Shown here: positions 27,796 to 57,860 of the stretch, piece by piece
Numbering within the stretch: the first letter of the stretch is position 1
Layout of the letters: each line of letters starts with the position of its first letter
The notes under the pieces: generated by a model
Told to the model about the DNA's origin: nothing
The model's input: the letters and a program-made list of their open reading frames with translations, nothing else
The model's database searches: none
DNA from: an uncultured Planctomycetia bacterium
GTDB lineage: Bacteria; Planctomycetota; UBA8108
Assembly (NCBI GenBank): GCA_964390645.1
Contig: CAYMLL010000001.1
Span: 35,045 to 99,044 of the forward strand
Length of the DNA: 64,000 nucleotides
Direction: 5' to 3'
Made by a program: the position numbers and the translations under genes

Positions 27796-30003
27796 CTACT
27801 CGAGGACTCCCCGCAAGAAGGGCACCCGCCTCTCGACGTACGAGCGGATGGCGCGGCAGGCATCGAGAATCTGCGCACGCCGTGCGCCCCGCCCCGCTTC
27901 CAGCTGCGCCTCCAGGAGCTCGAGATCCTCGAGCAGCAGGCTCTCCACGGCGTCGATCTTCCCCAGAACGGTCTCCTCGCTGAAGCCCCCGCCTGCGTCG
28001 ATCTCGCCGCGGAGCGCATCGCGGTAGAGCGCGTCGAGATCCGCTCGTCGGTGATAGGGCTCGGAGAAGATCCGGCGGTCGGCGGCCCGGCTGACGCAGG
28101 TGCCGCGACCATCGAGCGGAAAGGTGATCGGAAAGGTGACGCAGCCGAAGACCTGGTCGAGGTCCCAGGGAATCACGCGCCAGCGCCCACCGGGGGTCAG
28201 GTCGTGATAGAAATAGTAGTTCTGGTGGAAGCCGTCCCAGTTGTCCAGCAGCTCGCTGATGACCGAGTAGCTGCGAACGGAGTCGAGGTCGACCGTCGCC
28301 TCGAGGTCGTCGGACGCCAGAGCCCGCAGCAGCTGCCGGTAGCTCTCGTTGCCGGTCTCCCGGTGGGTCTTCTTGTCCGGCACGAAGCCGTTGTAGTGGT
28401 CCAGCTTGTAGAGGTCCCCGTCGGGATCGACGCCGTTCAGAGCGAAGAACCGCTCGTTGATGTGCTCGATGAGGACCCGCTGGGACTGACGGGACGCGTC
28501 GCCGTTCTCGACGACACGGAACCACCGCGCCCACGGCGCCAGACCTCCCAGATCCCGCCAGAGCTCGAAGCCGAGCTGCTCCATGTGCGGCGCCCGAGTG
28601 CCCGACCCGCCGCCGCCCCGCTCCGGAACGATCTTCACCGAACGATCGCCGCGATACTCCGCGCCCTTGAGGAACTTGAGCGTCAACCCGCCGCGCGATG
28701 AGCGCAGGTCGACGCCGTCGAGCACCTGGGGAGCCTCTGCCCCCGGCTCCCGGATGACCGCGCCTGCGAAGAGACGTCGGTTCTCCGTCAGCCCCGACGC
28801 CCGACGCGCGAAGAGCCAGAGGATCGGCAACCGGGACACGGTCTCGCCGTCCTCGACGAAGTAGCTGAGCACCGGCGGGCTCTCCGCCGTGTGGGGCAGG
28901 AGAACCGCGGAGCCGTCGGCCAGCTCCACACGGAAGTTGTAGCGCACCAGCGTGCTCGACGGACCCGGCGGGATGGTTGCCGAGAACCACGCCCAGTCGA
29001 GGCCGTTGTCGCCGAGCTCCATGCCCAGCGTCTGCGGATCGGTCACGGCCCCCGATACGCGCTGCCAGCGAACGGTCGCGCTCTCGATCGCCGCAGCCGG
29101 AACATCGAGCCCCAGCTCGACGGTGACGGCGTCCGGGGAGCGGGGATGCTCCGGAGTGGCGCGCGACGCCGCGAGCAGCGGGTGGGTCGGCGTCCCGGCC
29201 GACGCGTTCGGCGCGCCCGGAGTGCCCCCCCACGGACCGACCACCGGGGCGCTCGAGGCCCGCCAGCTGTGCGGATCCTCGGCGGGCGACTCGACGTCGA
29301 CCCGCTCGAGCGACGGCCCGTATCCGTCGGCGCCGTTCGGCCAGGGAAAGCTGTCCGCGTAGCGGAGGGACTCGAGCTCGCAGTCTCCGTCGAGAAGGCG
29401 GATGCGCTCGCCACCATTGGCGAGGAAGCCGGTGTACGGACCCGCCTTCAGATCGAGGCGGCGCCACCCGGCGAGGCCGGGCTCCTTGACCACGAGGAAG
29501 TAGCCTCCGGCCGGGACCACCGTCTCCTCGACGAAGGAGAACCTCACGCCGCCCGAGATGCGATGACCGCGCAGGTCGAGGTCGACTCCGGTGCGATTGT
29601 GGAGCTCGATGAACTCGAGCCTCTCGACGGCGCCGGCCGGGTTGTAGTGGATCTCGCTGAGAACGATGGCCGGCGCGGACCGAGGACGATCGGCGCAGCC
29701 CAGAGCGTCGCAGCTGGGGTCCGGCCCACGGGCAAACGCGCCCGGAAAGGGCAGCTCCGGAGCATCGGTGAAGAGGAAGCTCAGTGTCGTCACGACGTCG
29801 CTGAGGTCGAGCCGGCCGTCGTCGTTGGAGTCGGCGGCATCCTCGCAGCGCAGACGGACATCGGCGCCGAAGGACGCCAGGAGATGATAGATCGCGTCGG
29901 TGACGAGGACCCGCCCGTCGCGGTCCGCATCCCCCCGCAGGAAGTCCTGCGCGCCGAGAAAGAGGGGAGAGAAGCACAGAAGGAAGATGCCGACGCGCTG
30001 CAT
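27796..30003 (-). CDS. Secreted dockerin-like / lamin-tail-domain (LTD) / CotH kinase-like protein
   Basis: It has a signal peptide. Next come an N-terminal dockerin pair (GDADRDGRVLVTDAIYHLLASFG...DSNDDGRLDLSDVVTTLSFLF) and an LTD (IVLSEIHYNPAG...EFIELHNRTGVDLDLRGHRISGG). The C-terminal CotH domain reads LKFLKGAEYRGDRSVKIVPE...NGVDPDGDLYKLDHYNG...WDGFHQNYYFYHD...VIPWDLDQVFG. Confidence 0.8.
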   Translation of the reverse strand: MQRVGIFLLCFSPLFLGAQDFLRGDADRDGRVLVTDAIYHLLASFGADVRLRCEDAADSNDDGRLDLSDVVTTLSFLFTDAPELPFPGAFARGPDPSCDALGCADRPRSAPAIVLSEIHYNPAGAVERLEFIELHNRTGVDLDLRGHRISGGVRFSFVEETVVPAGGYFLVVKEPGLAGWRRLDLKAGPYTGFLANGGERIRLLDGDCELESLRYADSFPWPNGADGYGPSLERVDVESPAEDPHSWRASSAPVVGPWGGTPGAPNASAGTPTHPLLAASRATPEHPRSPDAVTVELGLDVPAAAIESATVRWQRVSGAVTDPQTLGMELGDNGLDWAWFSATIPPGPSSTLVRYNFRVELADGSAVLLPHTAESPPVLSYFVEDGETVSRLPILWLFARRASGLTENRRLFAGAVIREPGAEAPQVLDGVDLRSSRGGLTLKFLKGAEYRGDRSVKIVPERGGGGSGTRAPHMEQLGFELWRDLGGLAPWARWFRVVENGDASRQSQRVLIEHINERFFALNGVDPDGDLYKLDHYNGFVPDKKTHRETGNESYRQLLRALASDDLEATVDLDSVRSYSVISELLDNWDGFHQNYYFYHDLTPGGRWRVIPWDLDQVFGCVTFPITFPLDGRGTCVSRAADRRIFSEPYHRRADLDALYRDALRGEIDAGGGFSEETVLGKIDAVESLLLEDLELLEAQLEAGRGARRAQILDACRAIRSYVERRVPFLRGVLE

Positions 30004-31951: not shown

Positions 31952-32941
31952 ATGAACCGCAACCGTCTTTCTGCCGTCGGCCTGCTCACCGCGCTCCCCC
32001 TTGTCGCGGTCACGCTGGTGGCGCAGGACAACCCCCCGTTCGTCCGCGCGGACGCGAACCTCGACGGTGGCAGCGATCTCAGCGACGGCGTCTATCTGCT
32101 CGGCTACCTCTTCCTCGAGGGTCCGGCGCCGGGGTGCGAGGACGCCGCCGATTTCAACGACTCCGGCCGGCTCGACATCAGCGACGCGAGCTTCCTCTTC
32201 AACTCGCTCTTTGTCGGCGGTCCGCCGGTTCCTCCCCCCTCGGGCGACTGCGGCGAGGATCCGACGGACGACGACCTGACCTGTCGGGAGACCGACTGCG
32301 AGGTCGTCGAGCCCGGGCCACCCGGCGGCTACCGGCACTTCCGCGACAACGTCGAGATCGAGGAGTCCGGCAACCGCATGGTCATCCGCTCCGACGGAGT
32401 GCCGGACCACCCGAGCCCCTACTTCCGCCGCAACGACCCCCGGCACGTGCCGCCACACCCCGCCATGCGCCTGAACCCGAATCGAATCGTGCCGCAGGAT
32501 CTCGTCTTTCGCATCCCCGCAGTCCCGACCGTCGCGGCGAGACCGACCGATACGCGTCTCGGCCCGATCGGGGTCGCCGTCAACGGCGTCGCCCTCTTCA
32601 ACCAGTACGCCGGCCCCGGTCAGCCACTCGACCGTGAGATCATCTCCTTCGACATTTACAACGGTCACCCGCAGCAGACCGGGCTGTACCACTACCACGT
32701 CGAGCCGACCTACCTGACAGTGGACGACTCCGGCGCGCTGATCGGCTACCTCCTCGACGGCTTTCCACTGTACGGGCCGACCGAGGAGGACGGCAGCAAC
32801 CCGACCGGTCTCGACCCGTGCAACGGCCACACGCACGCGACCGAGGACTACCCGGACGGCCTCTACCACTACCATGTCGTCGCGGTGCCGCCGTACCTCG
32901 TCGGCTGCTACAAGGGCCGGCCCGGCACCTTCACGAACTGA
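31952..32941 (+). CDS. Secreted protein: N-terminal dockerin-like pair + C-terminal YHYH domain
   Basis: The start is MNRNRLSAVGLLTALPLVAVTLVAQ. The dockerin pair reads ADANLDGGSDLSDGVYLLGYLFLEGPAPGC and DFNDSGRLDISDASFLFNSLFVGGPP. The C-terminal domain carries GLYHYHVEP and GLYHYHVVAVPP, the YHYH motif. Confidence 0.7.
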   Translation: MNRNRLSAVGLLTALPLVAVTLVAQDNPPFVRADANLDGGSDLSDGVYLLGYLFLEGPAPGCEDAADFNDSGRLDISDASFLFNSLFVGGPPVPPPSGDCGEDPTDDDLTCRETDCEVVEPGPPGGYRHFRDNVEIEESGNRMVIRSDGVPDHPSPYFRRNDPRHVPPHPAMRLNPNRIVPQDLVFRIPAVPTVAARPTDTRLGPIGVAVNGVALFNQYAGPGQPLDREIISFDIYNGHPQQTGLYHYHVEPTYLTVDDSGALIGYLLDGFPLYGPTEEDGSNPTGLDPCNGHTHATEDYPDGLYHYHVVAVPPYLVGCYKGRPGTFTN

Positions 32942-32944
32942 CGA

Positions 32945-33660: not shown

Positions 33661-33686
33661 GGGATGCGACGCTCCGACGACTCGCG

Positions 33687-34391: not shown

Positions 34392-36027
34392 CCGGATCCG
34401 GCCGCCGCTGCTCCCCATCGTCCTCGTCGCCACGCTCACCACGTCGCTCACGGCGCAGGAAGACGCCCACTTCGTGCGCGGCGATGCGAACGTCGACGGC
34501 GGCGTCGACATCAGCGATGGCGTCTCGACGCTCCTGTTCCTGTTCGGCGGCGGCGAGGCACCGTCGTGCCACGACTCGGCCGACTCCAACGACACCGCGA
34601 CGGTCGACGTCAGCGACGCGATCTACCTCTTCAACTTCCTCTTCCTCGGGGGTGCGCAGCCGCCCGCGCCCTACCCCGACTGCGGCGCCGACCCATCCCC
34701 GGACGGTCCAGGCTGCAGACGCTTCGATCCCTGCGACGACGGGGAGCCGGCCGACCGACCCAACATCCTGCTCATCATCTCCGACGACCTCGGCGTCGAC
34801 TGGGCGTCCTGCTACGCGACCGGTCGAAACCTGCCGTCGACGCCGAATCTCGACCGGCTGTGCGCGACCGGAGTCACCTTCACGAACGCGTGGGCCAATC
34901 CGATCTGCTCGCCGACGCGCGCGACGATGCTCACCGGTCGCTACGCGTTCCGTACCGGTGTCGGCGACCAGATCGGCGGACGAACCGACGACGGTCTCGA
35001 CCCCGACGAGCTGACGATTCCCGACCTGCTCGACGCGGCGACGGAGCCCCGGTACACCCACGCGGCGATCGGCAAGTGGCACCTCGGAGGCGCCAACAAC
35101 GGCCGCAGGAACAGCCCCGGACGGCTCGGCTTCTCGCACTACTCGGGGAGTATCCGCGGGGCCATCGGCGACTACCACGAGTGGACGAAGACGGTCGATG
35201 GAAGCGACTCGGTCGTGACGCGCTACGCGACGACCGAGACCGTGGACGACGCCCTGCGCTGGATCGACGACCGGGACTCACCGTGGTTCCTCTGGCTGGC
35301 GTTCAACGCCCCTCACACGCCGTTCCACGCCCCCCCGGACGATCTCCACGGCGTCGTCGGCCTGACCGGCACGCCGGAGCACATCAACGCGAACCAGCGC
35401 GACTATTTCCGGGCCATGATCGAGGCGATGGACTCCGAGATAGGACGCCTGCTCGACTCGCTGGCGCCAGAGGTACGATCGCGAACCGACGTGATCTACA
35501 TCGGCGACAACGGCACCGCCGGAGGCGTCGCACGGCCGCCGCTGACTCGACAGACCGCCAAGGGCACCCTCTACCAGGGCGGCGTCCACGTGCCGCTCGT
35601 CGTGGCCGGACCGAGCGTGATCGACGGCGGCCGCAACGTCGACGCGCTGGCGTCCGCCACGGACATCTTCGCGACCGTGCTCGACCTCGCGAACGTCGAT
35701 CTCCTCGCAACGATCCCCGGCGACGTCCGCATCGACTCGCTCAGCCTCGTGCCGTACCTTCGAGGCGAGGAGCCGGCCACGCCCCGACGCCACGCGGTGG
35801 CCGAGCTCTTCGGCGCCAACACCCGCCCCGCCCGCGCCGGCAAGGCGATCCGTGGCGCACGCTACAAGCTCATCCGCCTCGAGCAGGGCACGGACGAGCT
35901 CTACGACCTCCTCGCCGACCCGCACGAGTCGAACAACCTGCTGTCGACAACACCGCTCGGCGACGACGAGCAGCAAGCCTACGACGAGCTCCGGGGCACT
36001 CTCGCCGATCTTCTCGAGACGCGCTGA
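34378..36027 (+). CDS. Arylsulfatase (formylglycine-dependent) with N-terminal dockerin-like pair
   Basis: The dockerin pair reads GDANVDGGVDISDGVSTLLFLFGGGEAPSC and DSNDTATVDVSDAIYLFNFLFLGGAQPP. The sulfatase core is ILLIISDDLG and CSPTRATMLTGRY (FGly motif C-x-P-x-R), plus GKWHLG. Confidence 0.85.
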   Translation: MKPSDRIRPPLLPIVLVATLTTSLTAQEDAHFVRGDANVDGGVDISDGVSTLLFLFGGGEAPSCHDSADSNDTATVDVSDAIYLFNFLFLGGAQPPAPYPDCGADPSPDGPGCRRFDPCDDGEPADRPNILLIISDDLGVDWASCYATGRNLPSTPNLDRLCATGVTFTNAWANPICSPTRATMLTGRYAFRTGVGDQIGGRTDDGLDPDELTIPDLLDAATEPRYTHAAIGKWHLGGANNGRRNSPGRLGFSHYSGSIRGAIGDYHEWTKTVDGSDSVVTRYATTETVDDALRWIDDRDSPWFLWLAFNAPHTPFHAPPDDLHGVVGLTGTPEHINANQRDYFRAMIEAMDSEIGRLLDSLAPEVRSRTDVIYIGDNGTAGGVARPPLTRQTAKGTLYQGGVHVPLVVAGPSVIDGGRNVDALASATDIFATVLDLANVDLLATIPGDVRIDSLSLVPYLRGEEPATPRRHAVAELFGANTRPARAGKAIRGARYKLIRLEQGTDELYDLLADPHESNNLLSTTPLGDDEQQAYDELRGTLADLLETR

Positions 36028-39832: not shown

Positions 39833-42800
39833 TCACGACCTACAGACGTTCGCGCAGCCGTCGACGCGCACGCAGTCGCCGCTCGGCGGCGCCGGCCCTC
39901 CCTGAAAGAGGTAGTCGAGGAGGTAGATCACGTCGGTGATCGCGACCGAGCCGTCCGCATCGACGTCAAAGACGGCGCGGTTGCCCCCGTCCTCGAGATC
40001 CGCGCCGTCGCACGGCAGCTCGGGCGCGTCCGGCAGGAAGAGGCGACGCACCAGAGAGAACGCGTCGGACACGTCGAGGCGACCATCCTGGTTGCTGTCA
40101 CCGCTGCGCTGTCGACCGCCGAGGCCCGGGAAGCCCTCGTCCGACGCACCGGGCGAGCCGCCGAGGATCGAGCTCGGGCCCCAGTTGTCCGGGGTCGTCC
40201 AGGTCACACGCTCCGCGAGAAGATCGACGATGACCAGGGAGTCGCCGCCGCCGTCCGTGGTCGGATACCACTCGTCATCGTAGAGAAAGTCGTGGATCGG
40301 CTCCTCGAGGGATCCCCGCACGACGATGCGCTCCCCGAGGTTCTCGAGACGGCCGTCGAACTCGCCGGCGACAAAAATCCGTCCCACGTCGTAACGCTCG
40401 GCGAAGGCCTCGATGTTGTTGACGATGACCACGTACTCCCCCGGATCGAGAGTCGGATCGCCAGCGCTCGGAAACGTGAAGGAGATGCCGCCGCTGACCT
40501 CGATCCCCGCGAGCGGCACCGGCTCGGCGCCGACGTTCGTGAACTCGACGAACTCGAAGTCCTCGTCGTCGTAGGGGCCGCCGGGGGCGTCCGGCTCGGG
40601 GTGGTACATGACCTCCGAGACGACGATCGTCGGCAGCTCGTTCCAGTACGTCGCCCGGACCATCGGCGTCCAGTCGTTCGTGGAGTAGCGCCTCCGCACC
40701 TTGACCTGAGTGGTCTCCGTGACCGTGAAGGGGCCCGTGTACTGCACCGCGGAGGCCGAGGTAGCGCCGCCCGGAAGCCGCGGATCGCTGCCGTCCGTGG
40801 TGTAGAGCTTCGTACCGGAGCCCGTGATCGCCACCTCCATGCCCGGAAAGATCTGGCGGCTTCCCGGCGTGATCGTCGGTGGCTGCCGGAACTGACCGTC
40901 GAGCCAGTCCGCACGGGTACGCAGCCAGATCTTCAAGCGCGAGATCTCGCTGTTCCAGCCGTTGACCGATATCTGGTTCCACCTCGACGAGTCACGCCGC
41001 TGGGCATCCCGGATCTCTGCGGCCATCTGATCGATGACGCGGAGGATGTTGGTGTTGCTCAGCGGCGGCAGGCTGCTGTCGCCGTAGTAACCGTTCCCGG
41101 TATTGCTCGCGGAGTCGGTGCGAAACATGTGCCAGCGATCACGGTAAATCTGCAGGAAGTCCTGATCGTCGAAGAGCCGCTCCCACCACGGATAGTCGAA
41201 GAAGCGAGTCGCGTCACCGGTCCCGTTCATCGTCGTCGGGTTGTCATCGCGTCCGTCGCTCGAGTTCATCGATCGGTCGAAGTCCCAGATCGGTCCGAAC
41301 TCGATCTCGCCGAGACGGTTCTTGTAGAAGTAGGTGCTCAGACGAAGGGCGTCGACGTTCTTCGGCAGCACGTTGAGCATGTGATGATCCGCCCACGACT
41401 CCTCGTCGACGTACGGCCCGTAGCCGAGCGTATCGTGACGGAAGTTCGCGGCGTTCAGGGCGCTCGAGAAGGAGTTGAAGTAGTTACGGATCCAGGTCGC
41501 CTGGTACGAAGGGATGTCGTCCTCCTTCGGCTCGACATGGCGCAGGCTCCGCCCGGCGGCGCTGAAGCCGCTGTCGCCCGGATCGGCGCGGTCGATCTTC
41601 AGCATGTAGCCGCCGGAGATCTCCGGCTCGCTGTCGTGGCCCGGAAGCAGCTCCTCGATGTCGACGCGTGCCGGATCACGCTTGATCTTCTCCATCAGGC
41701 TGTAGATGCCGCGGTAGTCGCCGCTGTCGAGCGAGCCGCCACCGGAGTTGAAGTAAACTTCGACGAACCTCGACCTCGCCGCCCAGCGGCCGAGCTGTCT
41801 GCTGAGGTCGTAAATCAGCGGGTTACGAAGATGAGCGCGGTCGAAATTGTAGGCTGCGTAGAGAATCCAGTCCGACTCCCTCGGCAGGCCGAATGGACGC
41901 AGCGCCTCGTCCTCGTTGTTCTCGTCCCAGAACTCGAAGGTGTAGCTGACCTTGTCGCGTCCACCGGTGCTCGAGCCTCGGGTCTTGATGCCGAAACGAT
42001 GGGCGAGCGTCGGATCCTCCGAGAAGCTCGTTCGACCGTCGATCGGCTCGTAGATCGCCATGAAGGCACCCGAGAAGGTCCCGGACGACGGGCGACCCCG
42101 GCCGTAATTGTCGATGACCACGACAGGGATGGACGAACGAACGTTGCGCACGCTCGACGCGAGAAAGATGTAGTTGGCGCTGACGACCTGGCTGACATCG
42201 CCGTCGTCCTCGAAGACGCGGGCACGCAGCCACATCGACGTGGAGACGTCGATGGAGCCCGTGTAGCGGGTCGACCCCTGGGTCGGAAGATCACCGTTCG
42301 TCGTGTAGCGAATCGTCGCACCCGGCGAGTCCGTGGTGATGATCACCGACGTGGCGGAGCTGAGCACGCGGCTGGTGGGCGAGATCTGCGGCGGCAGCGC
42401 GATGCCGCTGACGCCCGGCAAGTTCCCGGCACCGGGCGACGGGTCCGGAAAGAACAGAACCGTGTCTCGATCGAGCTCGCCACTCGAAAAGCCCTCGAGC
42501 TCCGGCATGACGACAAAATCCGAGCTCCCCGGGTTGTCGTTGAGCCCGTGGATCGCCAGGACGTTCGTCGCTCCGGCGGCGACGGTGCCGCCGGGGACGG
42601 TGCCGGAGAACTCCTCGAAGTTCACCGCGTCACCGTCGTCGTGAAGGCCCGTCGCCTCCGAGTTCCATCTCAGGCTGGCAACGCTCGGCGCGTTCGCTGA
42701 CGCGATCGGCTCGCCGTTCACGAAGGCCGAGAACCCGTCGTCGTACTTCATCCGCAGCACGAAACCGGTGATGTTCGAGCCGGCCGGCGCACTGAACGGA

Positions 42801-43489
42801 ACGCGGACGTAGCACGTCGTGTTCCGGTTGTTCATGTCGTTCTCGACGTCGAGATTGATCAGCGAACGATACGTCGCGTTCTCGTCGTAGCCGACGCCGG
42901 TCTCCCCGGAGGTCCAGGACGCGTCGTTGAAGTCGATCTGGCGCCACCCGGTGCCCTCGTTGCCGTTCTGCGGCACGCGCGCGCGCGCCGGTGCCTCGGA
43001 GTCGATCAGCTGCACGACCTCCGAGTTCTGCGCGAGGCCGTAAGAGAAGCCGGGCACCTGCTGGGGGAAGGGCGCGAACTCGTGCTTCACGGTGGCCCCA
43101 TCCGGCTCGACCAGCGCCAGGTACTCCCCGAGGCTCGAGAGCTTGAAATTCGCGTGCAGGGGCCTTCCCGGCACGCGCCGGTCCTTGTCGGAGCAGAAGA
43201 CCACGAGAAAGCTCCCCGGCGACAGCGTGACCGCAGGAAAGCGCCACTTCCGCAGGTCGAGCACGTCGTCGCTCAGGTACCAGCCACCGAGTTCGCAGGG
43301 AGTCACACCACCGTTGAAGATCTCGACGAAATCCGGCGTGTCGCCGTCTTCGTCGCGGATGGCTCCATCGTTGACCGCCATCAGCTCGGTGATCAACAGG
43401 TCGTCCGCCGGGGCAGCAGCCGTGATGAGGCCGACCCACAGCGCCAGCCCGCCCGGAATCCACCCGCGATGTCCGTTCTTCGCCGTCAT
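39833..43489 (-). CDS. Giant secreted LTD / CotH kinase-like / LTD protein with C-terminal dockerin-like pair (1,219 aa)
   Basis: ORF 39833..43552, with the start at MTAKNGHRGWIPGGLALWVGLITAAAPA (43489). The N-terminal LTD is LLITELMAVNDG...DFVEIFNGGVTPCELGGWYLSD. The CotH core is YTFEFWDENNE...YNFDRAHLRNPLIYDLSRQLG...GIYSLMEKIKRD...GYMLKIDR...GPIWDFDRS. A second LTD reads VVSEVMYHPEP...FEFVEFTNVGAEPVPLAGIEVSGG. The dockerin pair reads GDSNQDGRLDVSDAFSLVRRLF and DVDADGSVAITDVIYLLDYLFQGG. Confidence 0.8.
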   Translation of the reverse strand: MTAKNGHRGWIPGGLALWVGLITAAAPADDLLITELMAVNDGAIRDEDGDTPDFVEIFNGGVTPCELGGWYLSDDVLDLRKWRFPAVTLSPGSFLVVFCSDKDRRVPGRPLHANFKLSSLGEYLALVEPDGATVKHEFAPFPQQVPGFSYGLAQNSEVVQLIDSEAPARARVPQNGNEGTGWRQIDFNDASWTSGETGVGYDENATYRSLINLDVENDMNNRNTTCYVRVPFSAPAGSNITGFVLRMKYDDGFSAFVNGEPIASANAPSVASLRWNSEATGLHDDGDAVNFEEFSGTVPGGTVAAGATNVLAIHGLNDNPGSSDFVVMPELEGFSSGELDRDTVLFFPDPSPGAGNLPGVSGIALPPQISPTSRVLSSATSVIITTDSPGATIRYTTNGDLPTQGSTRYTGSIDVSTSMWLRARVFEDDGDVSQVVSANYIFLASSVRNVRSSIPVVVIDNYGRGRPSSGTFSGAFMAIYEPIDGRTSFSEDPTLAHRFGIKTRGSSTGGRDKVSYTFEFWDENNEDEALRPFGLPRESDWILYAAYNFDRAHLRNPLIYDLSRQLGRWAARSRFVEVYFNSGGGSLDSGDYRGIYSLMEKIKRDPARVDIEELLPGHDSEPEISGGYMLKIDRADPGDSGFSAAGRSLRHVEPKEDDIPSYQATWIRNYFNSFSSALNAANFRHDTLGYGPYVDEESWADHHMLNVLPKNVDALRLSTYFYKNRLGEIEFGPIWDFDRSMNSSDGRDDNPTTMNGTGDATRFFDYPWWERLFDDQDFLQIYRDRWHMFRTDSASNTGNGYYGDSSLPPLSNTNILRVIDQMAAEIRDAQRRDSSRWNQISVNGWNSEISRLKIWLRTRADWLDGQFRQPPTITPGSRQIFPGMEVAITGSGTKLYTTDGSDPRLPGGATSASAVQYTGPFTVTETTQVKVRRRYSTNDWTPMVRATYWNELPTIVVSEVMYHPEPDAPGGPYDDEDFEFVEFTNVGAEPVPLAGIEVSGGISFTFPSAGDPTLDPGEYVVIVNNIEAFAERYDVGRIFVAGEFDGRLENLGERIVVRGSLEEPIHDFLYDDEWYPTTDGGGDSLVIVDLLAERVTWTTPDNWGPSSILGGSPGASDEGFPGLGGRQRSGDSNQDGRLDVSDAFSLVRRLFLPDAPELPCDGADLEDGGNRAVFDVDADGSVAITDVIYLLDYLFQGGPAPPSGDCVRVDGCANVCRS

Positions 43490-48673: not shown

Positions 48674-48899
48674 CTATCACCAGATCTTGAACGAAACTCG
48701 GTTCTCGACGGATACGGGTTTCTCGCCGAAGCCCCCTGTTAGCCAGTCCCTCGAGCAACCCGACCAGACGCTGTATCGCCCTTTTCGCCGGAGCCCTTCT
48801 TCCTCGGAGCCCGACAACGAGGCGGAAGGCTGTTGCCCCGCCGTCGCGACTCCAGCGGGGTGACTGGGCCACCAGTCGAGACAGGCTGGCAACGCACGA

Positions 48900-49714: not shown

Positions 49715-49779
49715 GGAGCCGCGAGGACCCGCGACCTACCTGCGAAGCGATCCGGATCGAGCCTGCGTCAAGACGCCGA

Positions 49780-51339
49780 TCAGCTGAAGATCGCCTTGAA
49801 GATGTAGAAGAAGATGATCGCCAGGAGGGCCCCCGCAGGAAGGGTCACGACCCAGGATACGGCGATGTCCCGGACGACACGGAGGTTGAGCGCTCCAATG
49901 CCGCGCGCGAAGCCAACGCCGAGAACGGCGCCGACGAGCGTATGCGTCGTCGAGATCGGCATCCCCGCCCGTGACGCGACGAGGATCGTCACCGCGGCAC
50001 CGAATTCCGCGGAAAAACCACGAGTAGGCGTCAGCTCGGTGATCTTCTTGCCGATGGTCTCGATGACACGCCAGCCCCACATCGCCAGCCCGGCGACGAT
50101 TCCGACGCCTCCGATCGAGAACAGCAGCAGCGTCCAGCCGGTGCTGAGTCCGGAAGCCTTCTCGAGAACGTTGCGGTCGAGCACGCTCACGACACCACTG
50201 AGCGGGCCGATGGAGTTCGCAACGTCGTTGGCGCCGTGAGCGAACGCCACCGTGCAGGCGCTGAGAATCTGGAGGTAAACGAAGATCTTCTCCGTCGCAC
50301 GAATCTGTGGCGTGCCCCACTGCCGTGCCGACTTGTTTGCCTCTGTCGCCTCTTCGAGTTCGCGGGAGAGAGCCTCCACATCGGAGTCCCAGGTGTCGAT
50401 CCGCTTCTCGACATCGCCGTACGCCACCTCCCTGACTCGCTTCAAACGACTGCGAATCTTCGTCAGCTCCTCTTGAATCAACGGGTTCTGGAGCTCTCGA
50501 TCGTTCTCCCCCGACGCCGGCACCGCTTGCACCCGGTTGACGAGCGGAATGGAGATCAGTGCAGCAACGATACCGATCGGAATCGAGATGAACAGAGCGG
50601 TCGAGAACTCGATCTTGTCCAGGCCGAGCGGCTTCAACCCCTTGTACACGGTCACCAGAGCGATGATCGTGAAGACGATCGCGACCATCACCGGCGCCAG
50701 CCGTTTCGCCGCGGAAACCATGTCCTTCTTGAACAGGATCGTCCGCTGGATGATCAGGAACACGGCACACGAAAGAATGCCCGACATCACCGGCGAGACG
50801 AACCAGCTCGCGATGATGTCACGGACCTTGCCCCACGCGATCATGTCCAGGTTCCCCCAGAAGATCACGACTCCGAACCCCAGCACCGACCCGACAATGC
50901 TGTGCGTCGTCGACACGGGCAGACCGAAGTAGGTGGCGATCATCAACCACGTCGCGGCTGCCAACAGCGCCCCCATCATGCCGTAGACGTATAGCTGGAG
51001 ACCGTCGGGAATCTGCATCAGCTGATCGAGCGGAAGGATACCCTTACGAATCGTCTCGCTGACGTGCCGTCCGACGAGAAACGCTCCGGCAAATTCGAGC
51101 ACGCCCGCGACGACGATCGCTTGCTTGAGCGTCAGAGCCTTCGAGCCAACGGACGTCCCCATGGCATTGGCAACATCGTTCGCACCGATGCTCCACGCCA
51201 TGTAGAAGCCACTGACCAGAGCGATCCCCATGATGATCGACGAGGTCATGCTCGAGAAGAGCTGCCCGCCCTGCTCGGCCGCCGCCTGAGCGATCAGTGT
51301 CGATAGCGTTTCCAGCATCGCGGTAGAAACCGTGTTCAA
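49780..51339 (-). CDS. pit: Inorganic phosphate transporter, PiT family
   Basis: It has a duplicated GANDVANAMGTSVGS / GANDVANSIGP signature and 10-12 TM helices, with a central cytoplasmic loop bearing a coiled-coil. Confidence 0.85.
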   Translation of the reverse strand: MNTVSTAMLETLSTLIAQAAAEQGGQLFSSMTSSIIMGIALVSGFYMAWSIGANDVANAMGTSVGSKALTLKQAIVVAGVLEFAGAFLVGRHVSETIRKGILPLDQLMQIPDGLQLYVYGMMGALLAAATWLMIATYFGLPVSTTHSIVGSVLGFGVVIFWGNLDMIAWGKVRDIIASWFVSPVMSGILSCAVFLIIQRTILFKKDMVSAAKRLAPVMVAIVFTIIALVTVYKGLKPLGLDKIEFSTALFISIPIGIVAALISIPLVNRVQAVPASGENDRELQNPLIQEELTKIRSRLKRVREVAYGDVEKRIDTWDSDVEALSRELEEATEANKSARQWGTPQIRATEKIFVYLQILSACTVAFAHGANDVANSIGPLSGVVSVLDRNVLEKASGLSTGWTLLLFSIGGVGIVAGLAMWGWRVIETIGKKITELTPTRGFSAEFGAAVTILVASRAGMPISTTHTLVGAVLGVGFARGIGALNLRVVRDIAVSWVVTLPAGALLAIIFFYIFKAIFS

Positions 51340-51351
51340 AATCGGTGAAAG

Positions 51352-52024
51352 CTACTTGGCGATAAGGAGGCGCAGCCGATTGGCCATGCGCTCGGCTCCA
51401 TTTGCCAGATCCCCCAGCTTCGCAGTGACACGCATCCAGAGCAGGACCTCGACCGCGCCGATCTCATTCTCGAGTCCGACGACGATCTTCATCGCGGCGA
51501 GCTCGGAGGAGTCCGCGACCGTCTCGTCCTGGTTCAGGTTCTCGATCATCGCGAGCACCTTCTCGGCCTCCTCGCCGCCGAAGGACGACTCGACGAGCTC
51601 GTCGAACTCCTGAACGATGTCGGCCGCCTCGTGACAAACCCGACACGCGTCGGAGACGAGCTGGTTCAGCGGCTCCTTCAGATCCTCATGACACGACAGC
51701 CTCCGCAAGCTCAGCAGCGACCCGAGGTCCTGGCAGGTGTCGGCGATGGAGTCGATAACCTCCACGATCTCGAGAAGATCGCGACGGTCGATCGGAAGGA
51801 AGATGCTCTTCGGCAGATGTCCCCGGATGTCGTTCTTGACCCCGTCAGCTTCTGATTCGAGATCGTAGATCTCGCGGTTGAGCCGATCGAACTCCGGCAT
51901 GTTGCCGTCAGCAACCGCACCGATCAGGGCCGGAATACGCTCGACGCAAGCACGCGCCTTCTCCATGTGCTCCTGGACCGGTTTGAAAGGACTACGACCG
52001 AACAACGCCGCGAGGGCTTTCATC
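51352..52024 (-). CDS. DUF47 / TIGR00153-family PhoU-like protein (PiT-associated regulator)
   Basis: ORF 51352..52107, with the start at MKALAALFG (52024). The DUF47 layout (HMEKARACVERIP...EIYDLESEADGVKNDIRGHL...) is immediately upstream of pit, as in ykaA-pit pairs. Confidence 0.75.
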
Positions 52025-52406
52025 GTCAGAAATTCTCCTGTCTCAAACCAGGCCCCATCTCGTAGTCCGAACGCTGAGTATGTGGTTCCGACGCTCCACG
52101 AAACCAAAAGAGCGGCCGTGAACGGCAGATACGCTACGCCGGAATATTCAAGAGGTCATGAAGACTTTATTAAGCTTTCGTGAATTTCAATCTCGTCGGG
52201 AACCCGGCTACGACACGTCCCCCTTCCCACCACGTCGACGAGTGCGGACTGTCGAGATTCTGCCACCGTGCCACGAGCGCCGGTCCTCGCGCAATCCGGT
52301 GACGCGACCCGGTGACGCGTCCGGTTCCACGGACCTCACCAGGAAGCCCTCCAGGTACGAGCGTGGCAGCGCCCCCGGCGACGAAATCGCAAACTCTCGA
52401 GCTCGC

Positions 52407-55400
52407 TCAGAGCCCGTCGACACACTCGAGCGGCCCGTCGCCGTCCGGGTCCTCGCCAGGGTCGGGGTAGGGAGCTGCGGGCGGCGGGCCCTGCTGAAAC
52501 AGGTGCGCGAGGATGCGCACGGCGTCGGTGAGATCGACGGTCTCGTCGTTGTCGGCGTCCCCGGCGTCTCGACAGTTCGACTCGAGCCCCGAGAAGAGAT
52601 GGCGCAGGATGGCGACCGGATCGCTGATGTCGACCACGCCATCGAGGTTGAAGTCGCCGCGGATGAACCGCGGAGGCAGTCCCAGCGCGGTGAACTCGAG
52701 ACGGTTGGAGTCGCCGCTGCCGAAATTGCGCGCGGTGATCGTCGCCGGGCCGGCGTCGACGAGCGGCACCTCGGCGACCAGCACGCCGGGATCGGCGCCG
52801 GGGTCATGGGTGACGAGCGGCGACAGCACACCCCCGAAGAAGACCTCGATGCCCGCGTGGAGCTCGCTGCCGCGAATGGTCACGCTGTCTCCCGGACGTG
52901 CCTCGACAGGCTCCACCGTCGTGAGCACCGGCGGCGGCAAGCCGAAGGTCGTCGTCACCGTGATCGAATCCGTCGCCGTGACCTCCCCGCTCGTCGCCAC
53001 CCCGAGTAGCCGAACGTCGTTCTCCCCGGAGACGAGCGGCACGGTGATGCGCCATCGCGACAGACTAGACCACGTGATCTGCGAACGCTCCTCGAGCCCG
53101 TCGACGAGAATCGACTGCACGTCGATGCCTGCGTCGCCCTCGAGGTCTACCGTCGGAGTATCGAGCGCCAGATCCGCACCACCGTTTGTCGTGATGCGAA
53201 AGGCCACCGGGGCCGGCAGCCGACCCCGCACAAAGCGACCGCGCTGGCCGATGTAGTTGAGGATCCCCCCGAAGTTCCTGCCAGTCTTGGTACCGTAGTG
53301 CTCGGTCCAGTGACGCATGTAGTCCGTGTTGTAGACCCGGTCGATGATGTCATCGAGGTGGCCGTAGAACCTTCGAAGGTTGCCGGGCAGCTCGATGATC
53401 CGACGCAGATTCTGGTCACCGTAGAGGGATGCGCCCGTGCCCCGCGTGAACGAGAAGTCGGCGTCCCACATCATGACCAGCACCTTGCCGTCTGACGGAC
53501 GCACGTAGTGCATGTTGTTGTGGTTGTTGCCAAAGGTGTAGCTGTCGTTGATGCCGGTCAGCGAGTAGACGGCGAAGACGCGCATCCACTCGTCGACATC
53601 CATGGTCGCCTCGGTGGCGGCATCCAGCTGCGAACGCGGAGCGCTGAACGCCTTCGACATGCCGATGAACTGCCGGTAGTCATCACGGGAGCGATTGTTG
53701 CGGATCAGGAAGTTCCAGCGGTAGACCTCCTTGTCGTCACCCCAGTCGCGAATGTCCGCGCCGATGACCCCGTCCGGCAGCGGGATCTTGTAGCCGTTCC
53801 CGTCGGCGGTCGTCGGGTGATAGATGAGCTCGAGCTTGAAGAGAGTACCGTCCCGCCCGTTCTCGAACGCGGACTCGAGAAAGACGTCGTTGTACCGTGC
53901 CATGAGAAGGAGCGCATAGCTGGTGTGCTGCCGACGCGGCGCGATGACACGAACGAGATCGTCGTACATCGCCGGGATACCGCCCGCGTAGTTCGCCGTA
54001 TGCTTGACGAGGATCTCGTCCTGCGACTGGATCGGCACGAGCCCGGACCACCCACCGGAGCGGTCCATAGCGATGCTGCGATGCACACCTCGAAACAGGT
54101 GGTCGGCGGGAAAACGGATGTTGAAGCTGACACGGTTGGTGTCGGGCCGACCGCGCTCGCTGCCGCGCAGACGCACGCCAGCGTCGTAGAACACCTCCTC
54201 TTCATTGTAGACGACCGTTGTCCCCACCGGATCGTTCGACATCAGCTCGATCGAGGCGTAGAGGCGTGATATGTCGGCCGGGGTCATGATGATCCGGACG
54301 TTGTGGACGGAGCCGAGCCGAGCCTGCCCGTCGTTCGTCCGGTAGAGTGCCCTCGAGTCACGGCCGCCGTCGGGATAGGTCGACGATGCACCGAGCCCGT
54401 CCTCCGCCTCGACATAAAACTGCACCGTACGCGATGACGACTGGCCGGGTATCGTGCCCCGGTAGCGGCCTGCGGCGAGGCTCATCGAAGCGCTGCGCCA
54501 GGCCCCTCCCTCGACGGAGTACCGGAGCTGCACGCTATCGACGCCGTCGGGATCATCGACGCCAACGCTGACAACGACCGGCTCTCCAGAGGCCGGAACC
54601 ACAGGAGCATGCATCATGCCGTCGTAGGTCGGGCCGATGTTGGCCTGGCGCCGGGAGTTCTCCGCACCCGGCGTTCCCGCGCGCTCGGAGACCGTCACCA
54701 GCGTCGTTCGTGGACAGCGGTTGAAATAGAGCCGCGTGTGCACCTGGTTCGAGCCGACGACCCACCTGGCACGAAACGAGATCTCGTACGTACGACCGTT
54801 GGTGACGCCGATGTTGTTCGCGAGCGTCCGCTCGACGTGATTGTGCATGTGCTCGGTCGCGCCGGTTGCAACGAGACGCAGCACCCGATTGCCCGGGTCA
54901 TCGGGATCCGTGATGACCTCACTGTGGCGATGCGTGCCCAGAAAACGCCATCCGGAGCTACCGCTCGCAAAGCTGCCGTTCTGGATGAGCTGGCGCTCGG
55001 CGCCGCCGGGATTCTCGATGACGCTGATGTCGTCGACCAGCACCTCGCCGCCGTCCAGAAGTCCGAGGCAGAAGTCTCGCCACCGTGTCGGGCCTATGTT
55101 GGCCCTCGCGGGCTGCGTGTAGACGTACGTCGTCCACTGCGTCTTGTCGCTCTCGTCGCTGGCGGCCCAGACCTCGGGACGCGAGTTGTCGGCGTCGGGG
55201 TCGCGCAGCTCGATGCTCGCGCCGCCTCCATCAGCGGCGCCCGGCCACGGCTGGCGGTCGTGGTAGCGCACGACGTCGGCCACGTTGCCGTTCCGATCCT
55301 CGAGGACGAGTCGGTCGCTGCGCCCGGACAGGTTGCCCTCGAAGTCCCCGACGATCGGGATGTCGGGGTGGAGCCCCTCGAGGAAGACCCGGTCACCGGC

Positions 55401-57860
55401 GACGACGAGGTAGCCACCTGCCGGAATGGTCTGGCCGTCCTCGAACTCGTAGCGAATACCACGAGTCATCCTCCACCCGCTGAGATCAACCGTCGAGGTG
55501 CCCCGATTGTGGAGCTCCACCCAGGCCTCGGGGGACTCCGTCGGATCGCCGCCCGCGACGTCGACGATCTCACGGGCACTGACCTCGAGTCCGAAGACGA
55601 CGTCGCTCGAGCCGGCTGTTCTCTGGTGCACCTCGACCGCGATCACGTTGCGCCCGCTTCGCAAGCTCGCCGCCGACACCGCGAAGGGACCGGCGAAGGT
55701 CGCGTCACCGATAGCCGCAGCGGCCAGTGTCGCGGGCGTCACCGGGCCGTCAGGCATCCCCTGCCGCAGTACTTCGACACCATTGAGATAGAAGACCGCG
55801 CCGTCATCGATGACGCTCCGGAAGAAGATCTCGGTGGCTGCGGGGTCACCGTCAAAGTCGAACTCCCCGCGAAAGTAGTAGGTGATCGCGCCGAGTGGCA
55901 ACTCCGTACCCCTGGGAGCGGGCAAGCCGCCGGACTCGTGGTAGAGCAGCGCGTCGCCGACCTCCCAGCCCGCATCATCGAACGTCGACTGTCGCCAGCC
56001 ACTCCCCTGACCGTCGCCACTCGCGTCGAAGCGCCACTCGCTGGCGATCGGCACGATCACGTCGCCGATCACGGTCCCGGCGCTCGGCGCCGGCTCGTTG
56101 CGCGGGTTGTAAAAGATCTCGTTGATGACGATCTCGTCGTGAAAAGAGAACGTGTTGGCGCTACCGAAGGTCGGTCCGTCCGGCACGGCAAGCTCGTTGC
56201 CGCCGTCCGGCGAGCGACCCCGTCGTCCGTCCTTCAAGCGTAGCGCATCGACGACCGCCCCCTTGCCACGGGTGTAGAGAAAGAGACGGGAGTCCACGAC
56301 GAGCGCAAAACCGAGTTCCGTCGCCGTCAGCACGTGAAACGCGCCCGTCTCGAGCGTCACCGCCCCGAAGACGTGCTCGCCGACCGTCGTGCCGTGCGCC
56401 TCCAGCACCCAGCCCTCGAGGGAGACCCGCGGACCGGTGTTGTAGAGCTCGATGCGACCCTCTCCCGCCGTGGGAATCTCGGTCTCGTTGATCACGACGC
56501 CGATGTCGCTCGTATCGACCTGTCCGCCGCCACCCGAGAAATAATCTCCTCCGCCCTGCGTCAGGGAGCGATGGTCGGCAATTTCGGCGGCGTTGAGAGC
56601 TCGCTCCCAGATCGCTACCTCGTCGAGCACCCCGGTGAACGGTTCTCGCCGGCCGCTCATGTTGCCGATGTAGGCCGTCGCGATGCCTCCCGAAGTGATC
56701 GTATCACCCGGTGTCAGCACCGTCGTGAAGGCCTCGGCGCCATCGACCCAGATCGTCTTCTCGCCGGTCGATGCTCGATAGGTCGCAGCGACGTGATGCG
56801 TGCTCCCGTCCTTCAGCCCGGCAAGCGTCGGTCGACCCGCCACGCCGTCGAGGGGCATGTCGAGCTCACTGTAGGTGCCACCGATGTTCAGACCGAACGA
56901 CAGCGTGGGCTGTACAGCAGGCGAGATCGCGACGTCACGGGTCCCCGTGTTTCCATCGTGCTGGAACGAGAAGAAGATCCTGCGGCTGCCGTCCTCCTTG
57001 CGGAAAATCTGGTCGTGGTCGTCGACCGCGCCGCTCCACTCGGGACGGATCAGCGCCTCGATCGTGATGCCGCCCGACATCGAGAAGCTGTCCCCCTCGC
57101 CGTTGCCGACGTTGACGAGAGCGTTCGAACTGTTGTCCAGATCGATCGCGCCGTCGCCGACGAGCCCGTCGACCCTGCGGACACCCGAGCCCAGGTTGCC
57201 GTGGTTGCCGCCGACAGCATCGACGGCCTGGCCGCTCGACTCGTCGAAACTCCAGTAGGACACGAGTCCCTGCGCATTCGTCGGCGGCGGCTCGTCCCCG
57301 TCTGCAAAGTTGACCCGTCCGGGCGTGCCGCCGATCTCCGCGCTCGACGTCCAGCTGGCAGTGCGCGAGCTGCGCGTGTCCGGATCGATCTTGGCCAGCG
57401 ACACCCCGGAACCGTCAGCGGACACCGGCCATTCGCCGCCGACACCGTAGCTGACGCGGTCCATCCAGCGGCCGTTGTGGTCGCGAAGCTCGAGACGCTC
57501 ACCGGCGTTGCTCAACCGTCCGACGAAGGGGCCGAAGGCGCCCGGGTAGCCGGTCTCGGCCTCGAGCGCGGCGGGGTCGAGCGCGACGACGATGTAGTCG
57601 CCACCTTCGACGATCGTCCCCGCGGGAAACTGGTAGAAGACGCCGTCAGACAGGTACCAGCTCGAGATGTCAACGTCCACCGCCATCTGGTTGTGGAGCT
57701 CGATCCACTCCAGCTGCACCTCGCTGGTGGCAGGGTGGTACTGGATCTCGTTGAAGACGACGATGCTGTCCGCTCGCCCGGCGCCTGTCCAGGTGAACAA
57801 GAACCCGAAGAGCGCCGCACCCATCAACGCGGTGTGAGATTGCCTCTGGCCTGCACTCAT
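52407..57860 (-). CDS. Giant secreted multi-LTD / LamG-like / CotH kinase-like / IPT protein with C-terminal dockerin-like pair (1,818 aa)
   Basis: ORF 52407..58319, with the start at MSAGQRQSHTALMGAALFGFLFTWTGAGRA (57860). LTD1 is VVFNEIQYHP...EWIELHNQMAVDVDISSWYLSDG. A LamG-like stretch is LVSYWSFDESSGQAVDAVGGNHGNL...ITIEALIRPEW. Further LTDs include AWVELHNRGTSTVDLSGWRMT. The CotH core is VFYDAGVRLRGSERGRPDTNRVSFNIRF...YALLLMARYND...LFKLELIYHP...WNFLIRNN...VLVMMWDADFSF. There are IPT-like repeats (VTIRGSELHAGIEVFFGG). The dockerin pair is GDFNLDGVVDISDPVAILRHLFSG and DADNDETVDLTDAVRILAHLFQQG. Confidence 0.8.
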   Translation of the reverse strand: MSAGQRQSHTALMGAALFGFLFTWTGAGRADSIVVFNEIQYHPATSEVQLEWIELHNQMAVDVDISSWYLSDGVFYQFPAGTIVEGGDYIVVALDPAALEAETGYPGAFGPFVGRLSNAGERLELRDHNGRWMDRVSYGVGGEWPVSADGSGVSLAKIDPDTRSSRTASWTSSAEIGGTPGRVNFADGDEPPPTNAQGLVSYWSFDESSGQAVDAVGGNHGNLGSGVRRVDGLVGDGAIDLDNSSNALVNVGNGEGDSFSMSGGITIEALIRPEWSGAVDDHDQIFRKEDGSRRIFFSFQHDGNTGTRDVAISPAVQPTLSFGLNIGGTYSELDMPLDGVAGRPTLAGLKDGSTHHVAATYRASTGEKTIWVDGAEAFTTVLTPGDTITSGGIATAYIGNMSGRREPFTGVLDEVAIWERALNAAEIADHRSLTQGGGDYFSGGGGQVDTSDIGVVINETEIPTAGEGRIELYNTGPRVSLEGWVLEAHGTTVGEHVFGAVTLETGAFHVLTATELGFALVVDSRLFLYTRGKGAVVDALRLKDGRRGRSPDGGNELAVPDGPTFGSANTFSFHDEIVINEIFYNPRNEPAPSAGTVIGDVIVPIASEWRFDASGDGQGSGWRQSTFDDAGWEVGDALLYHESGGLPAPRGTELPLGAITYYFRGEFDFDGDPAATEIFFRSVIDDGAVFYLNGVEVLRQGMPDGPVTPATLAAAAIGDATFAGPFAVSAASLRSGRNVIAVEVHQRTAGSSDVVFGLEVSAREIVDVAGGDPTESPEAWVELHNRGTSTVDLSGWRMTRGIRYEFEDGQTIPAGGYLVVAGDRVFLEGLHPDIPIVGDFEGNLSGRSDRLVLEDRNGNVADVVRYHDRQPWPGAADGGGASIELRDPDADNSRPEVWAASDESDKTQWTTYVYTQPARANIGPTRWRDFCLGLLDGGEVLVDDISVIENPGGAERQLIQNGSFASGSSGWRFLGTHRHSEVITDPDDPGNRVLRLVATGATEHMHNHVERTLANNIGVTNGRTYEISFRARWVVGSNQVHTRLYFNRCPRTTLVTVSERAGTPGAENSRRQANIGPTYDGMMHAPVVPASGEPVVVSVGVDDPDGVDSVQLRYSVEGGAWRSASMSLAAGRYRGTIPGQSSSRTVQFYVEAEDGLGASSTYPDGGRDSRALYRTNDGQARLGSVHNVRIIMTPADISRLYASIELMSNDPVGTTVVYNEEEVFYDAGVRLRGSERGRPDTNRVSFNIRFPADHLFRGVHRSIAMDRSGGWSGLVPIQSQDEILVKHTANYAGGIPAMYDDLVRVIAPRRQHTSYALLLMARYNDVFLESAFENGRDGTLFKLELIYHPTTADGNGYKIPLPDGVIGADIRDWGDDKEVYRWNFLIRNNRSRDDYRQFIGMSKAFSAPRSQLDAATEATMDVDEWMRVFAVYSLTGINDSYTFGNNHNNMHYVRPSDGKVLVMMWDADFSFTRGTGASLYGDQNLRRIIELPGNLRRFYGHLDDIIDRVYNTDYMRHWTEHYGTKTGRNFGGILNYIGQRGRFVRGRLPAPVAFRITTNGGADLALDTPTVDLEGDAGIDVQSILVDGLEERSQITWSSLSRWRITVPLVSGENDVRLLGVATSGEVTATDSITVTTTFGLPPPVLTTVEPVEARPGDSVTIRGSELHAGIEVFFGGVLSPLVTHDPGADPGVLVAEVPLVDAGPATITARNFGSGDSNRLEFTALGLPPRFIRGDFNLDGVVDISDPVAILRHLFSGLESNCRDAGDADNDETVDLTDAVRILAHLFQQGPPPAAPYPDPGEDPDGDGPLECVDGL

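Follow-up and report, generated by a model that had tools for sequence, protein, structure and literature searches.

Bacillus CotH (PF08757; PDB 5jd9/5jda) is the nearest characterised relative of three large proteins encoded in a 64,000-nucleotide stretch of DNA, hereafter the window, from an uncultured Planctomycetia bacterium (GTDB lineage Bacteria; Planctomycetota; UBA8108; assembly GCA_964390645.1, contig CAYMLL010000001.1, positions 35,045 to 99,044 of the forward strand). The three genes, designated P1, P2 and P3, are located on the minus strand and encode lamin-tail domains (LTD), a CotH kinase-like domain and a dockerin-like module. The reading preferred here, held with slightly better than even confidence, is that their products are members of three old LTD/CotH subfamilies and act as surface-tethered extracytoplasmic phosphotransferases.

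With a length of about 360 amino acids (aa), Bacillus CotH consists of one domain, lacks a signal peptide and functions in sporulation. It phosphorylates CotB and CotG and acts in the mother cell, where adenosine triphosphate (ATP) is available. The planctomycete proteins, in contrast, are 735–1817 aa long, multi-modular and predicted to be exported, and have no sporulation context. They contain the same catalytic Asp and WDxD metal-binding motif, and all three families give full-length profile alignments with Bacillus CotH, with a sequence identity of only 13–19%. Fam20C-type kinases of the secretory pathway are likewise atypical kinase folds acting on exported proteins or glycans, and it was reportedly through distant similarity to these enzymes that Nguyen and co-workers recognised CotH in 2016. 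Fam20C-type kinases work in the Golgi lumen, into which ATP is imported; we know of no equivalent ATP supply for the bacterial periplasm or cell surface.

In architecture, the nearest described proteins are the cellulosomal CotH proteins of Clostridium thermocellum and of anaerobic fungi, in which LTD, CotH and dockerin are likewise combined on an extracellular protein. The cellulosomal components of C. thermocellum include Cthe_0239 (LTD-LTD-Fn3-CotH) and CseP/Cthe_0044 (CotH), and recent papers assign no defined function to cellulosomal CotH. The present host is a diderm planctomycete known from a metagenome rather than a cellulolytic Gram-positive bacterium, and no cohesin, scaffoldin or cellulase context was seen in the window. 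Further differences are that the dockerin-like module scores just under the Pfam cut-off and occurs at either protein end, and that additional LamG and CBM4_9 domains are present. For Planctomycetes, the assembly of exported enzymes at the cell surface by cohesin-dockerin pairs, with an LTD-containing anchor, was proposed as the ‘planctosome’ hypothesis (Andrei et al., 2019; PMC6461901). That speculative proposal concerns peptidases of freshwater Nemodlikiaceae, whereas the cargo considered here is a kinase-like domain.

Architecture and catalytic core of the CotH proteins

The window has a G+C content of about 66% and contains many spurious long open reading frames (ORFs), which were told from real genes by codon-position G+C. 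The domain order of P1, P2 and P3 is given in Table 1, in which all sub-feature coordinates were checked by translation; no further CotH ORF was found in the window. The P2 frame can be extended to a GTG codon at 43552. The P3 frame is open to 58319, and this extension is rich in Arg, Pro and Ser and overlaps, on the opposite strand, the region upstream of the next gene (58133–62794). The starts at 43489 (P2) and 57860 (P3) are credible because typical signal peptides follow them, alignments with homologues begin there and P3 has a length of 1817 aa in the public gene call. Public proteins identical to P2 (P0001, from a public metagenome) and to P3 (P0121) were found, and the window corresponds to a contig in an ENA assembly of an environmental metagenome.

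All three proteins carry a signal-peptide-like N-terminus, and both CotH and LTD are matched above the Pfam threshold in each of them. The LTD matches (PF00932) have E values of 1.7e-10 in P1, 9e-21 in P2 (two LTDs) and 1.8e-34 in P3, with an immunoglobulin (Ig)-like fold. In P1, a Cys/Pro-rich linker joins the dockerin-like pair to the LTD, and the Ig-like module (approximately residues 275–385) resembles CBM56 and the PPAD Ig domain. The beta-rich module of P2 (approximately residues 160–340), which has no family assignment, is related to that of P3 (BLASTP E 1e-4). The two Fn3_assoc/CHB_HEX_C copies of P2 comprise residues 374–441 and approximately 895–934, and the degenerate LTD of P3 is a sub-threshold match at residues 455–514. 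No NCBIfam model matches P1–P3.

An earlier, sequence-only reading of the window had described the three products as secreted proteins combining LTD, CotH and a dockerin-like tag. The combination is confirmed in all three, export being predicted, and the tag is present in each, with the correction that in P1 it is N-terminal (residues 22–87) and not C-terminal. The position of LTD on the N-terminal side of CotH, traced there in two of the proteins, holds for all three, P2 having an additional LTD on the C-terminal side. As to the LamG and IPT modules ascribed to the largest protein, LamG is present in P3 (Laminin_G_3), while IPT/TIG gave no Pfam match at E<1 in P3 itself and is carried only by several of its orthologues (PF01833).

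The identity of the CotH domains is evidenced by PF08757 scores of 61.8 (P1), 128.5 (P2) and 31.1 bits (P3), all above the cut-off of 23.8 bits. Sequence searches of the PDB with phmmer gave a marginal match of P1 to 5jd9 (E 0.004) and no CotH match with P2 or P3; the P2-family profile found only dockerins in the PDB. Family profiles were compared by hhalign with a Bacillus reference made up of one CotH from the B. cereus group and two from other Bacillales, recovered with the 5jd9 fragment. The P1 family matched this reference with 98.5% probability (E 3e-15, 290 aligned columns), the P2 family with 96.8% (E 2e-10, 305 columns) and the P3 family with 95.7% (E 9e-9, 310 columns). The AlphaFold2 model of the P3 CotH domain has a mean pLDDT (predicted local distance difference test) of 87, and its top Foldseek match is 5jd9 (E 1.8e-14, template-modelling score 0.69). 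B. cereus CotH is the best match of the predicted structures of both P1 and P3, which have its atypical protein-kinase-like fold.

The catalytic core known from the Bacillus spore-coat kinase is complete in the CotH domains of P1–P3. Mutation of D228 and D251 in B. subtilis CotH inactivates the kinase (PMC7821199). These residues correspond to D223 and D246 in the B. cereus-type sequence, and to D590/D614 in P1, D713/D736 in P2 and D1439/D1466 in P3, and are invariant or nearly so within each family. Conservation in the P2 type was determined for 148 domains taken from cluster representatives at ≤50% identity: D713, S718, W735 and D736 are present in all 148, and K513, E519, E577, R608 and D633 in 93–99%. 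Such conservation across so divergent a set is the pattern expected of an enzyme rather than of a scaffold. The catalytic-site residues of P3 are invariant in 27 family members. The Asn at position +5 from the catalytic Asp is N595 in P1; in P3, whose catalytic loop differs from that of Bacillus CotH by a 4-residue insertion, it follows this insertion (H1447-N1448). Thus the CotH assignment, for which the sequence-only reading had named the catalytic residues, the significance of the hidden Markov model (HMM) match and structure prediction as checks, is upheld by all three.

A D-x-[ND]-x-D-G-x-x-x-x-x-D loop and a helix ending in LF occur twice in each of P1–P3. The N-terminal module of P1, as modelled, superposes on the dockerins 4fl4 and 2ccl at 1.6 and 1.3 Å, respectively. 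Since the Dockerin_1 (PF00404) scores of 20.9, 21.1 and 20.0 bits are just under the cut-off of 22.9 bits, and the P2-family profile matches type I dockerins of the PDB at E 1e-3 only, the module is named dockerin-like. A pattern scan located it on at least nine predicted exported proteins of the window, of varied kinds: the CotH proteins, a sulfatase, a YHYH protein, a protein with a PPDK_N domain, the DUF1080-PKD giant and an ORF without family assignment. It is N-terminal, just past the signal peptide, in P1, the sulfatase and the YHYH protein, and C-terminal in the others. Because the module would be functional at either end, it behaves like a binding module rather than a C-terminal sorting signal, and appears to serve this organism as a general tether.

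Table 1. Positions in the window of P1, P2, P3, their domains and key residues, and of neighbouring genes
Feature	Position	Strand	Residues	Content or evidence
P1	27796..30003	-	735 aa	Signal peptide, N-terminal dockerin-like pair, LTD, Ig-like module, CotH
P1 dockerin-like calcium-loop pair	29743..29940	-	22-87	Directly after signal peptide
P1 LTD	29389..29679	-	109-205	
P1 CotH kinase-like domain	27799..28836	-	~390-735	Pfam CotH E 1e-16
P1 CotH residues	28234-28236 (D590); 28156-28167 (W613-D614-L-D616)	-	D590, N595, W613-D614-L-D616	Residue map
P1 deviating residues	28680-28682; 28632-28634; 28362-28364	-	441, 457, 547	Family alignment, n=26
P2	39833..43489	-	1218 aa	Signal peptide, LTD, beta-rich module, Fn3_assoc/CHB_HEX_C, CotH, Fn3_assoc/CHB_HEX_C, LTD, dockerin-like pair
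P2 N-terminal LTD	43085..43414	-	26-135	Pfam PF00932 E 9e-21 for two stretches
P2 CotH	40898..41986	-	502-864	Pfam E 5e-37, full-length match
P2 CotH residues	41351-41353 (D713); 41276-41287 (W735-D736-F-D738)	-	D713, S718, W735-D736-F-D738	Residue map
P2 C-terminal LTD	40145..40633	-	953-1115	Second Pfam stretch; BLASTP vs P1 LTD 32% identity, E 3e-9
P2 dockerin-like pair	39908..40099	-	1131-1194	Pfam Dockerin_1 E 4e-4, 20.9 bits (cut-off 22.9)
P3	52407..57860	-	1817 aa	Signal peptide, LTD, LamG, degenerate LTD, beta-rich module, LTD, CBM_4_9, Ig-like module, CotH, C-terminal beta modules, dockerin-like pair
P3 LTD 1	57444..57764	-	33-139	Pfam E 7.5e-15
P3 LamG/concanavalin-like domain	56574..56987	-	292-429	Pfam Laminin_G_3 E 6e-18 and 1e-15
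P3 LTD 3	55260..55544	-	773-867	Pfam LTD; BLASTP vs P1 LTD 34% identity, E 1e-15
P3 CBM_4_9 carbohydrate-binding module	54747..54989	-	958-1038	Pfam PF02018 E 8e-8
P3 CotH	53214..54305	-	~1186-1549	Pfam E 2e-7, partial, above gathering score
P3 CotH residues	53544-53546 (D1439); 53457-53468 (W1465-D1466-A-D1468)	-	D1439, 4-residue insertion, H1447-N1448, W1465-D1466-A-D1468	Residue map
P3 dockerin-like pair	52491..52664	-	1733-1790	Pfam Dockerin_1 E 3.5e-4; BLASTP vs P1 module 36% identity, E 4e-7
DUF1080-PKD giant, divergent neighbour of P3	58133..62794	+		Signal peptide, six DUF1080 (3keto-disac_hyd), interspersed PKD, C-terminal dockerin-like pair; Pfam
Second DUF1080-PKD gene, runs off window end	62910..64000	+		Pfam
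PPDK_N protein, tail-to-tail with P2	36254-39454	+	1066 aa	Signal peptide, PPDK_N (Pfam E 2.6e-16), C-terminal dockerin-like pair
Histidine kinase and response regulator after P1	25793-27585	-		Best matches PnpS/PhoR and PhoB, below cut-offs
DUF47, PHO4/Pit transporter, PhoU, PhoB-like regulator after P3, same strand	47966-52107	-		Weak receiver domain in the regulator
PSCyt1/PSCyt2/PSD1 and DUF1501 pair	19671-24064	+		Typical of planctomycetes
Second DUF1501 gene, immediately upstream of P1	30151-31785	-		
Dockerin-like modules	29770-29832, 32051-32116, 34483-34545, 39197-39259, 40034-40099, 52497-52655, 62519-62710, 10090-10155			Pattern scan

Neighbouring genes and the DUF1080-PKD association

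What is new here is the location, in several genomes, of a P3-type gene beside genes for giant DUF1080-PKD-dockerin proteins. This is the one recurring association of the P3 type, and it was observed in the window and at loci L005, L006 (two copies), L007 (two copies) and L016. DUF1080 is a 3-keto-disaccharide-hydrolase-like domain. In the giant next to P3, a PKD domain follows four of the DUF1080 units by eye, and Pfam reports three PKD domains. The homologues adjoining P3-type genes in L005, L006 and L007 show 36–51% identity, and that of L016, located 2.6 kb from the P3-type gene, shows 26%. Orientation varies: the genes are divergent in the window and L005, and co-directional with gaps of 130–190 base pairs in L006 and L007. 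All of these recurring neighbours carry a signal peptide and a dockerin-like end. In Bacillus, cotB and cotG flank cotH, and Nguyen and co-workers are said to have identified the substrates in that way. By this analogy, the DUF1080-PKD-dockerin giants would be the best candidate partners of the P3-type CotH proteins and the first candidates for their substrates.

Between P1, P2 and P3 lie genes coding for DUF1501, YHYH, SCO1, sulfatase, exported PPDK_N, PfkB and S9 peptidase proteins, a PhoB-like regulator, PhoU, Pit and DUF47. The P3...P2 order is kept in a relative at about 65% identity and not in more distant genomes; likewise, the synteny of all three genes was found only in the close relative at 65% identity and is lost at 55–64%. 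P1-type genes come after DUF1501 genes in three of four contexts, including L009 and L010. Since DUF1501 is very abundant in these genomes, this association carries little weight.

The PPDK_N domain is the ATP-grasp nucleotide-binding domain of phosphoenolpyruvate synthase and pyruvate phosphate dikinase, so that the PPDK_N protein contains a second ‘ATP-using’ domain predicted to be exported in the window. The same pairing with P2 is seen in L014, the relative at 65% identity, and in L015 a 1833-aa protein with FG-GAP and PPDK_N domains is encoded at a distance of 9 kb from the P2 orthologue. In L003, the P2 orthologue is followed by a gene that has no relationship to the window PPDK_N gene.

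The PfkB (ribokinase-like) gene (43696–45855, plus strand) forms an implausible ORF of 719 aa, while the sister contig L001 encodes an intact protein of 316 aa. The two sequences differ by one residue (at approximately 253) and diverge completely from about residue 265, the difference lying near 44444–44500. A divergence of this kind, as after a small indel, stems from a frameshift carried by the strain or else from a mistake in the assembly.

Proposed function and alternatives

In the preferred reading, each protein would leave the cytoplasm via its Sec-type signal peptide, and the calcium-binding dockerin-type module would tether it to a partner on the cell surface. The lamin-tail, LamG, CBM4_9 and chitobiase-C-type beta-sandwich modules could bring the protein onto a polymeric or glycan-rich surface or matrix. 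As its catalytic core is intact, the CotH domain would most likely transfer a phosphoryl group to a protein or glycan outside the cytoplasm, the DUF1080-PKD-dockerin giants flanking P3-type genes being, on the cotB/cotG analogy, the candidate partners or substrates.

Several points weigh against this reading. To our knowledge, there is no ATP pool outside the cytoplasm of a diderm bacterium, which makes a classical ATP-dependent kinase reaction there hard to explain. The activity, export and surface location of P1–P3 are all predicted, and no cohesin Pfam match occurs among the window genes. The neighbours were proposed as candidate substrates from gene order only, and L017 has no DUF1080-PKD neighbour. 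Within the CotH domain, P2 has an invariant Ser (S718, 148/148) in place of the Asn located five residues past the catalytic Asp of Bacillus CotH. The N-lobe also differs by subfamily: Bacillus R45-G46...K54 is kept in P2, replaced by R-G...R in P3 and by D-G...(variable) in P1. Finally, among 26 members of the P1 family, only the window P1 has T441 (K in 20/26), K457 (N in 25/26) and H547 (N in 25/26). This protein may therefore be impaired, its activity altered or reduced, although it retains the catalytic Asp residues.

The first alternative, possible although rather unlikely, is that these proteins are non-catalytic surface adhesins or structural proteins, with the CotH fold as a binding module and the beta-sandwich modules as a long adhesive stalk. 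That ATP is lacking outside the cell speaks for a role other than that of a kinase. Binding-type modules dominate the architecture, and window P1 has unusual residues at three conserved N-lobe positions. An adhesin or binding role has been proposed for the CotH invasins of Mucorales, while CseP, from the cellulosomal group without defined function, was first described as possibly structural. However, the catalytic Asp, WDxD and further charged residues are kept in 93–100% of the 148 very divergent P2-type domains, and the catalytic Asp and WDxD are invariant in the P1 and P3 families. These residues are the ones whose mutation kills the Bacillus kinase, and their retention would be surprising in a pure scaffold.

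A role in phosphate economy is improbable. In this case the proteins would form part of the response to phosphate starvation, with phosphorylated polymers such as extracellular DNA, phospho-glycans or polyphosphate as their targets, and would transfer or salvage phosphate rather than signal. Downstream of P3, in the same orientation, come genes for DUF47, a PHO4/Pit transporter, PhoU and a PhoB-like regulator; P1 is followed by genes for a histidine kinase and for a response regulator with best matches to PnpS/PhoR and PhoB, and a PhoU-like gene likewise follows the P3 orthologue in L005. According to the Pfam description of the domain, LTDs in bacteria are usually found together with secreted phosphoesterases and nucleases. 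Against this, the regulator matches are under the curated cut-offs and tie with OmpR-type models, and the Pit/PhoU neighbourhood is absent in L006, L007, L016 and L017. A k-mer search of the upstream regions found no shared motif, and scans for promoters and terminators at the ends of P1, P2 and P3 were uninformative and provide nothing that links the genes.

Still more doubtful is a docked surface phosphorylation machine, in which several CotH enzymes would act with DUF1080-PKD substrates and the exported PPDK_N protein would make or regenerate the phosphoryl donor, possibly under phosphate control. If true, this would be an extracytoplasmic kinase system with its own energy supply in a diderm bacterium.

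Relationship of the three genes, distribution and significance

In BLASTP comparisons among P1, P2 and P3, only the LTD and dockerin modules align well (28–36% identity). The CotH regions of P1 and P3 are 23% identical (E 2e-4), and the CotH region of P2 gave no BLASTP alignment with either. Profile-profile comparisons of CotH yielded E values of 1e-5 for P1-P2 and 4e-4 for P1-P3, and P2-P3 was not significant; each of these values is worse than the match of each family to Bacillus CotH (3e-15 to 9e-9). Each family HMM recovers only its own gene within the window. Because the CotH domains are mutually diverged and each gene has its own orthologues elsewhere, P1, P2 and P3 are best described, on this divergence, as three ancient LTD/CotH subfamilies lying near each other and not as the result of recent triplication.

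The sequence-only reading had suggested a recent local triplication with domain shuffling in a family expanding in this genome; in spite of the occurrence of three CotH genes inside 30 kb, of LTD and dockerin modules common to all three, and of numerous paralogues in other genomes (for example six of the P1 type in a 9.18-Mb genome and a neighbouring pair of the P3 type in L007), this is scarcely credible and, judging from the divergence data, already refuted for this locus, since the CotH domains are nearly unrecognisable to each other, the copies are not each other's closest relatives but have their closest orthologues in other genomes (53–66% identity), 10–12 kb of unrelated genes separate them, and the P3...P2 arrangement is already present in the relative at 65% identity, so that the layout is old.

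P2-type proteins gave more than 2,000 matches, with a best non-self identity of 66%, and P3-type proteins 589 (65%). The P1 type is less common: its members measure about 740 aa, have the dockerin at the N-terminus and gave about 35 full-length matches (53%). At E≤1e-3, the P2 CotH domain alone matched 8,600 clusters (50% identity), of which 1,772 passed E≤1e-30; the proteins are 500–4,200 aa long, and some representative-library proteins (P0323, P0324) contain two CotH domains. All three types have orthologues in other Planctomycetota, and relatives of the P2 and P3 types are present in Verrucomicrobiota as well. P2-type relatives are encoded at no fewer than 582 loci among species-representative genomes. 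Their carriers include the cultured Bythopirellula polymerisocia and Aeoliella, and the metagenome-assembled Roseibacillus, Pedosphaera, Limisphaerales, Akkermansiaceae and Opitutia. In databases the relatives are named ‘CotH kinase family protein’ (NCBI) or ‘lamin tail domain-containing protein’. P2 and P3 belong directly to these families, whose architecture and length they share. A literature search on CotH in Planctomycetes or in phosphate starvation found nothing relevant.

Several divergent CotH giants are located side by side in L006, L007 and L017. The last of these, a 1.95-Mb contig, encodes three LTD-CotH giants of 1677, 2226 and 1720 aa within 19 kb. Among loci from species-representative genomes with flanks of up to 10 kb on each side, a second CotH ORF was found near the P2-type gene in 8/80, and in 1/33 loci with full flanks. 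CotH genes therefore cluster occasionally rather than as a rule.

P1, P2 and P3 are ordinary members of large families that are uncharacterised though already annotated, and there is nothing exceptional about the locus. The thousands of relatives recovered agree with the earlier statement that the architecture is widespread in Planctomycetes and functionally uncharacterised. They also qualify the view that extracellular kinase-like enzymes are unusual in such cells: thousands of predicted exported CotH proteins occur in Planctomycetota and Verrucomicrobiota, and dockerin-tagged CotH has already posed a puzzle in the cellulosomes of bacteria and fungi. Beyond the shared design and the lead provided by the recurring neighbour, the window itself adds nothing unique.

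The role of a kinase fold outside the cell is a question first raised by the clostridial and fungal cellulosomal CotH proteins. In Planctomycetota and Verrucomicrobiota, the LTD-CotH-dockerin design with an intact catalytic core is kept in thousands of proteins predicted to be exported, and the DUF1080-PKD-dockerin giants provide a concrete lead to a candidate partner or substrate. Cultured Bythopirellula and Aeoliella carry homologues, and the question is therefore directly testable.

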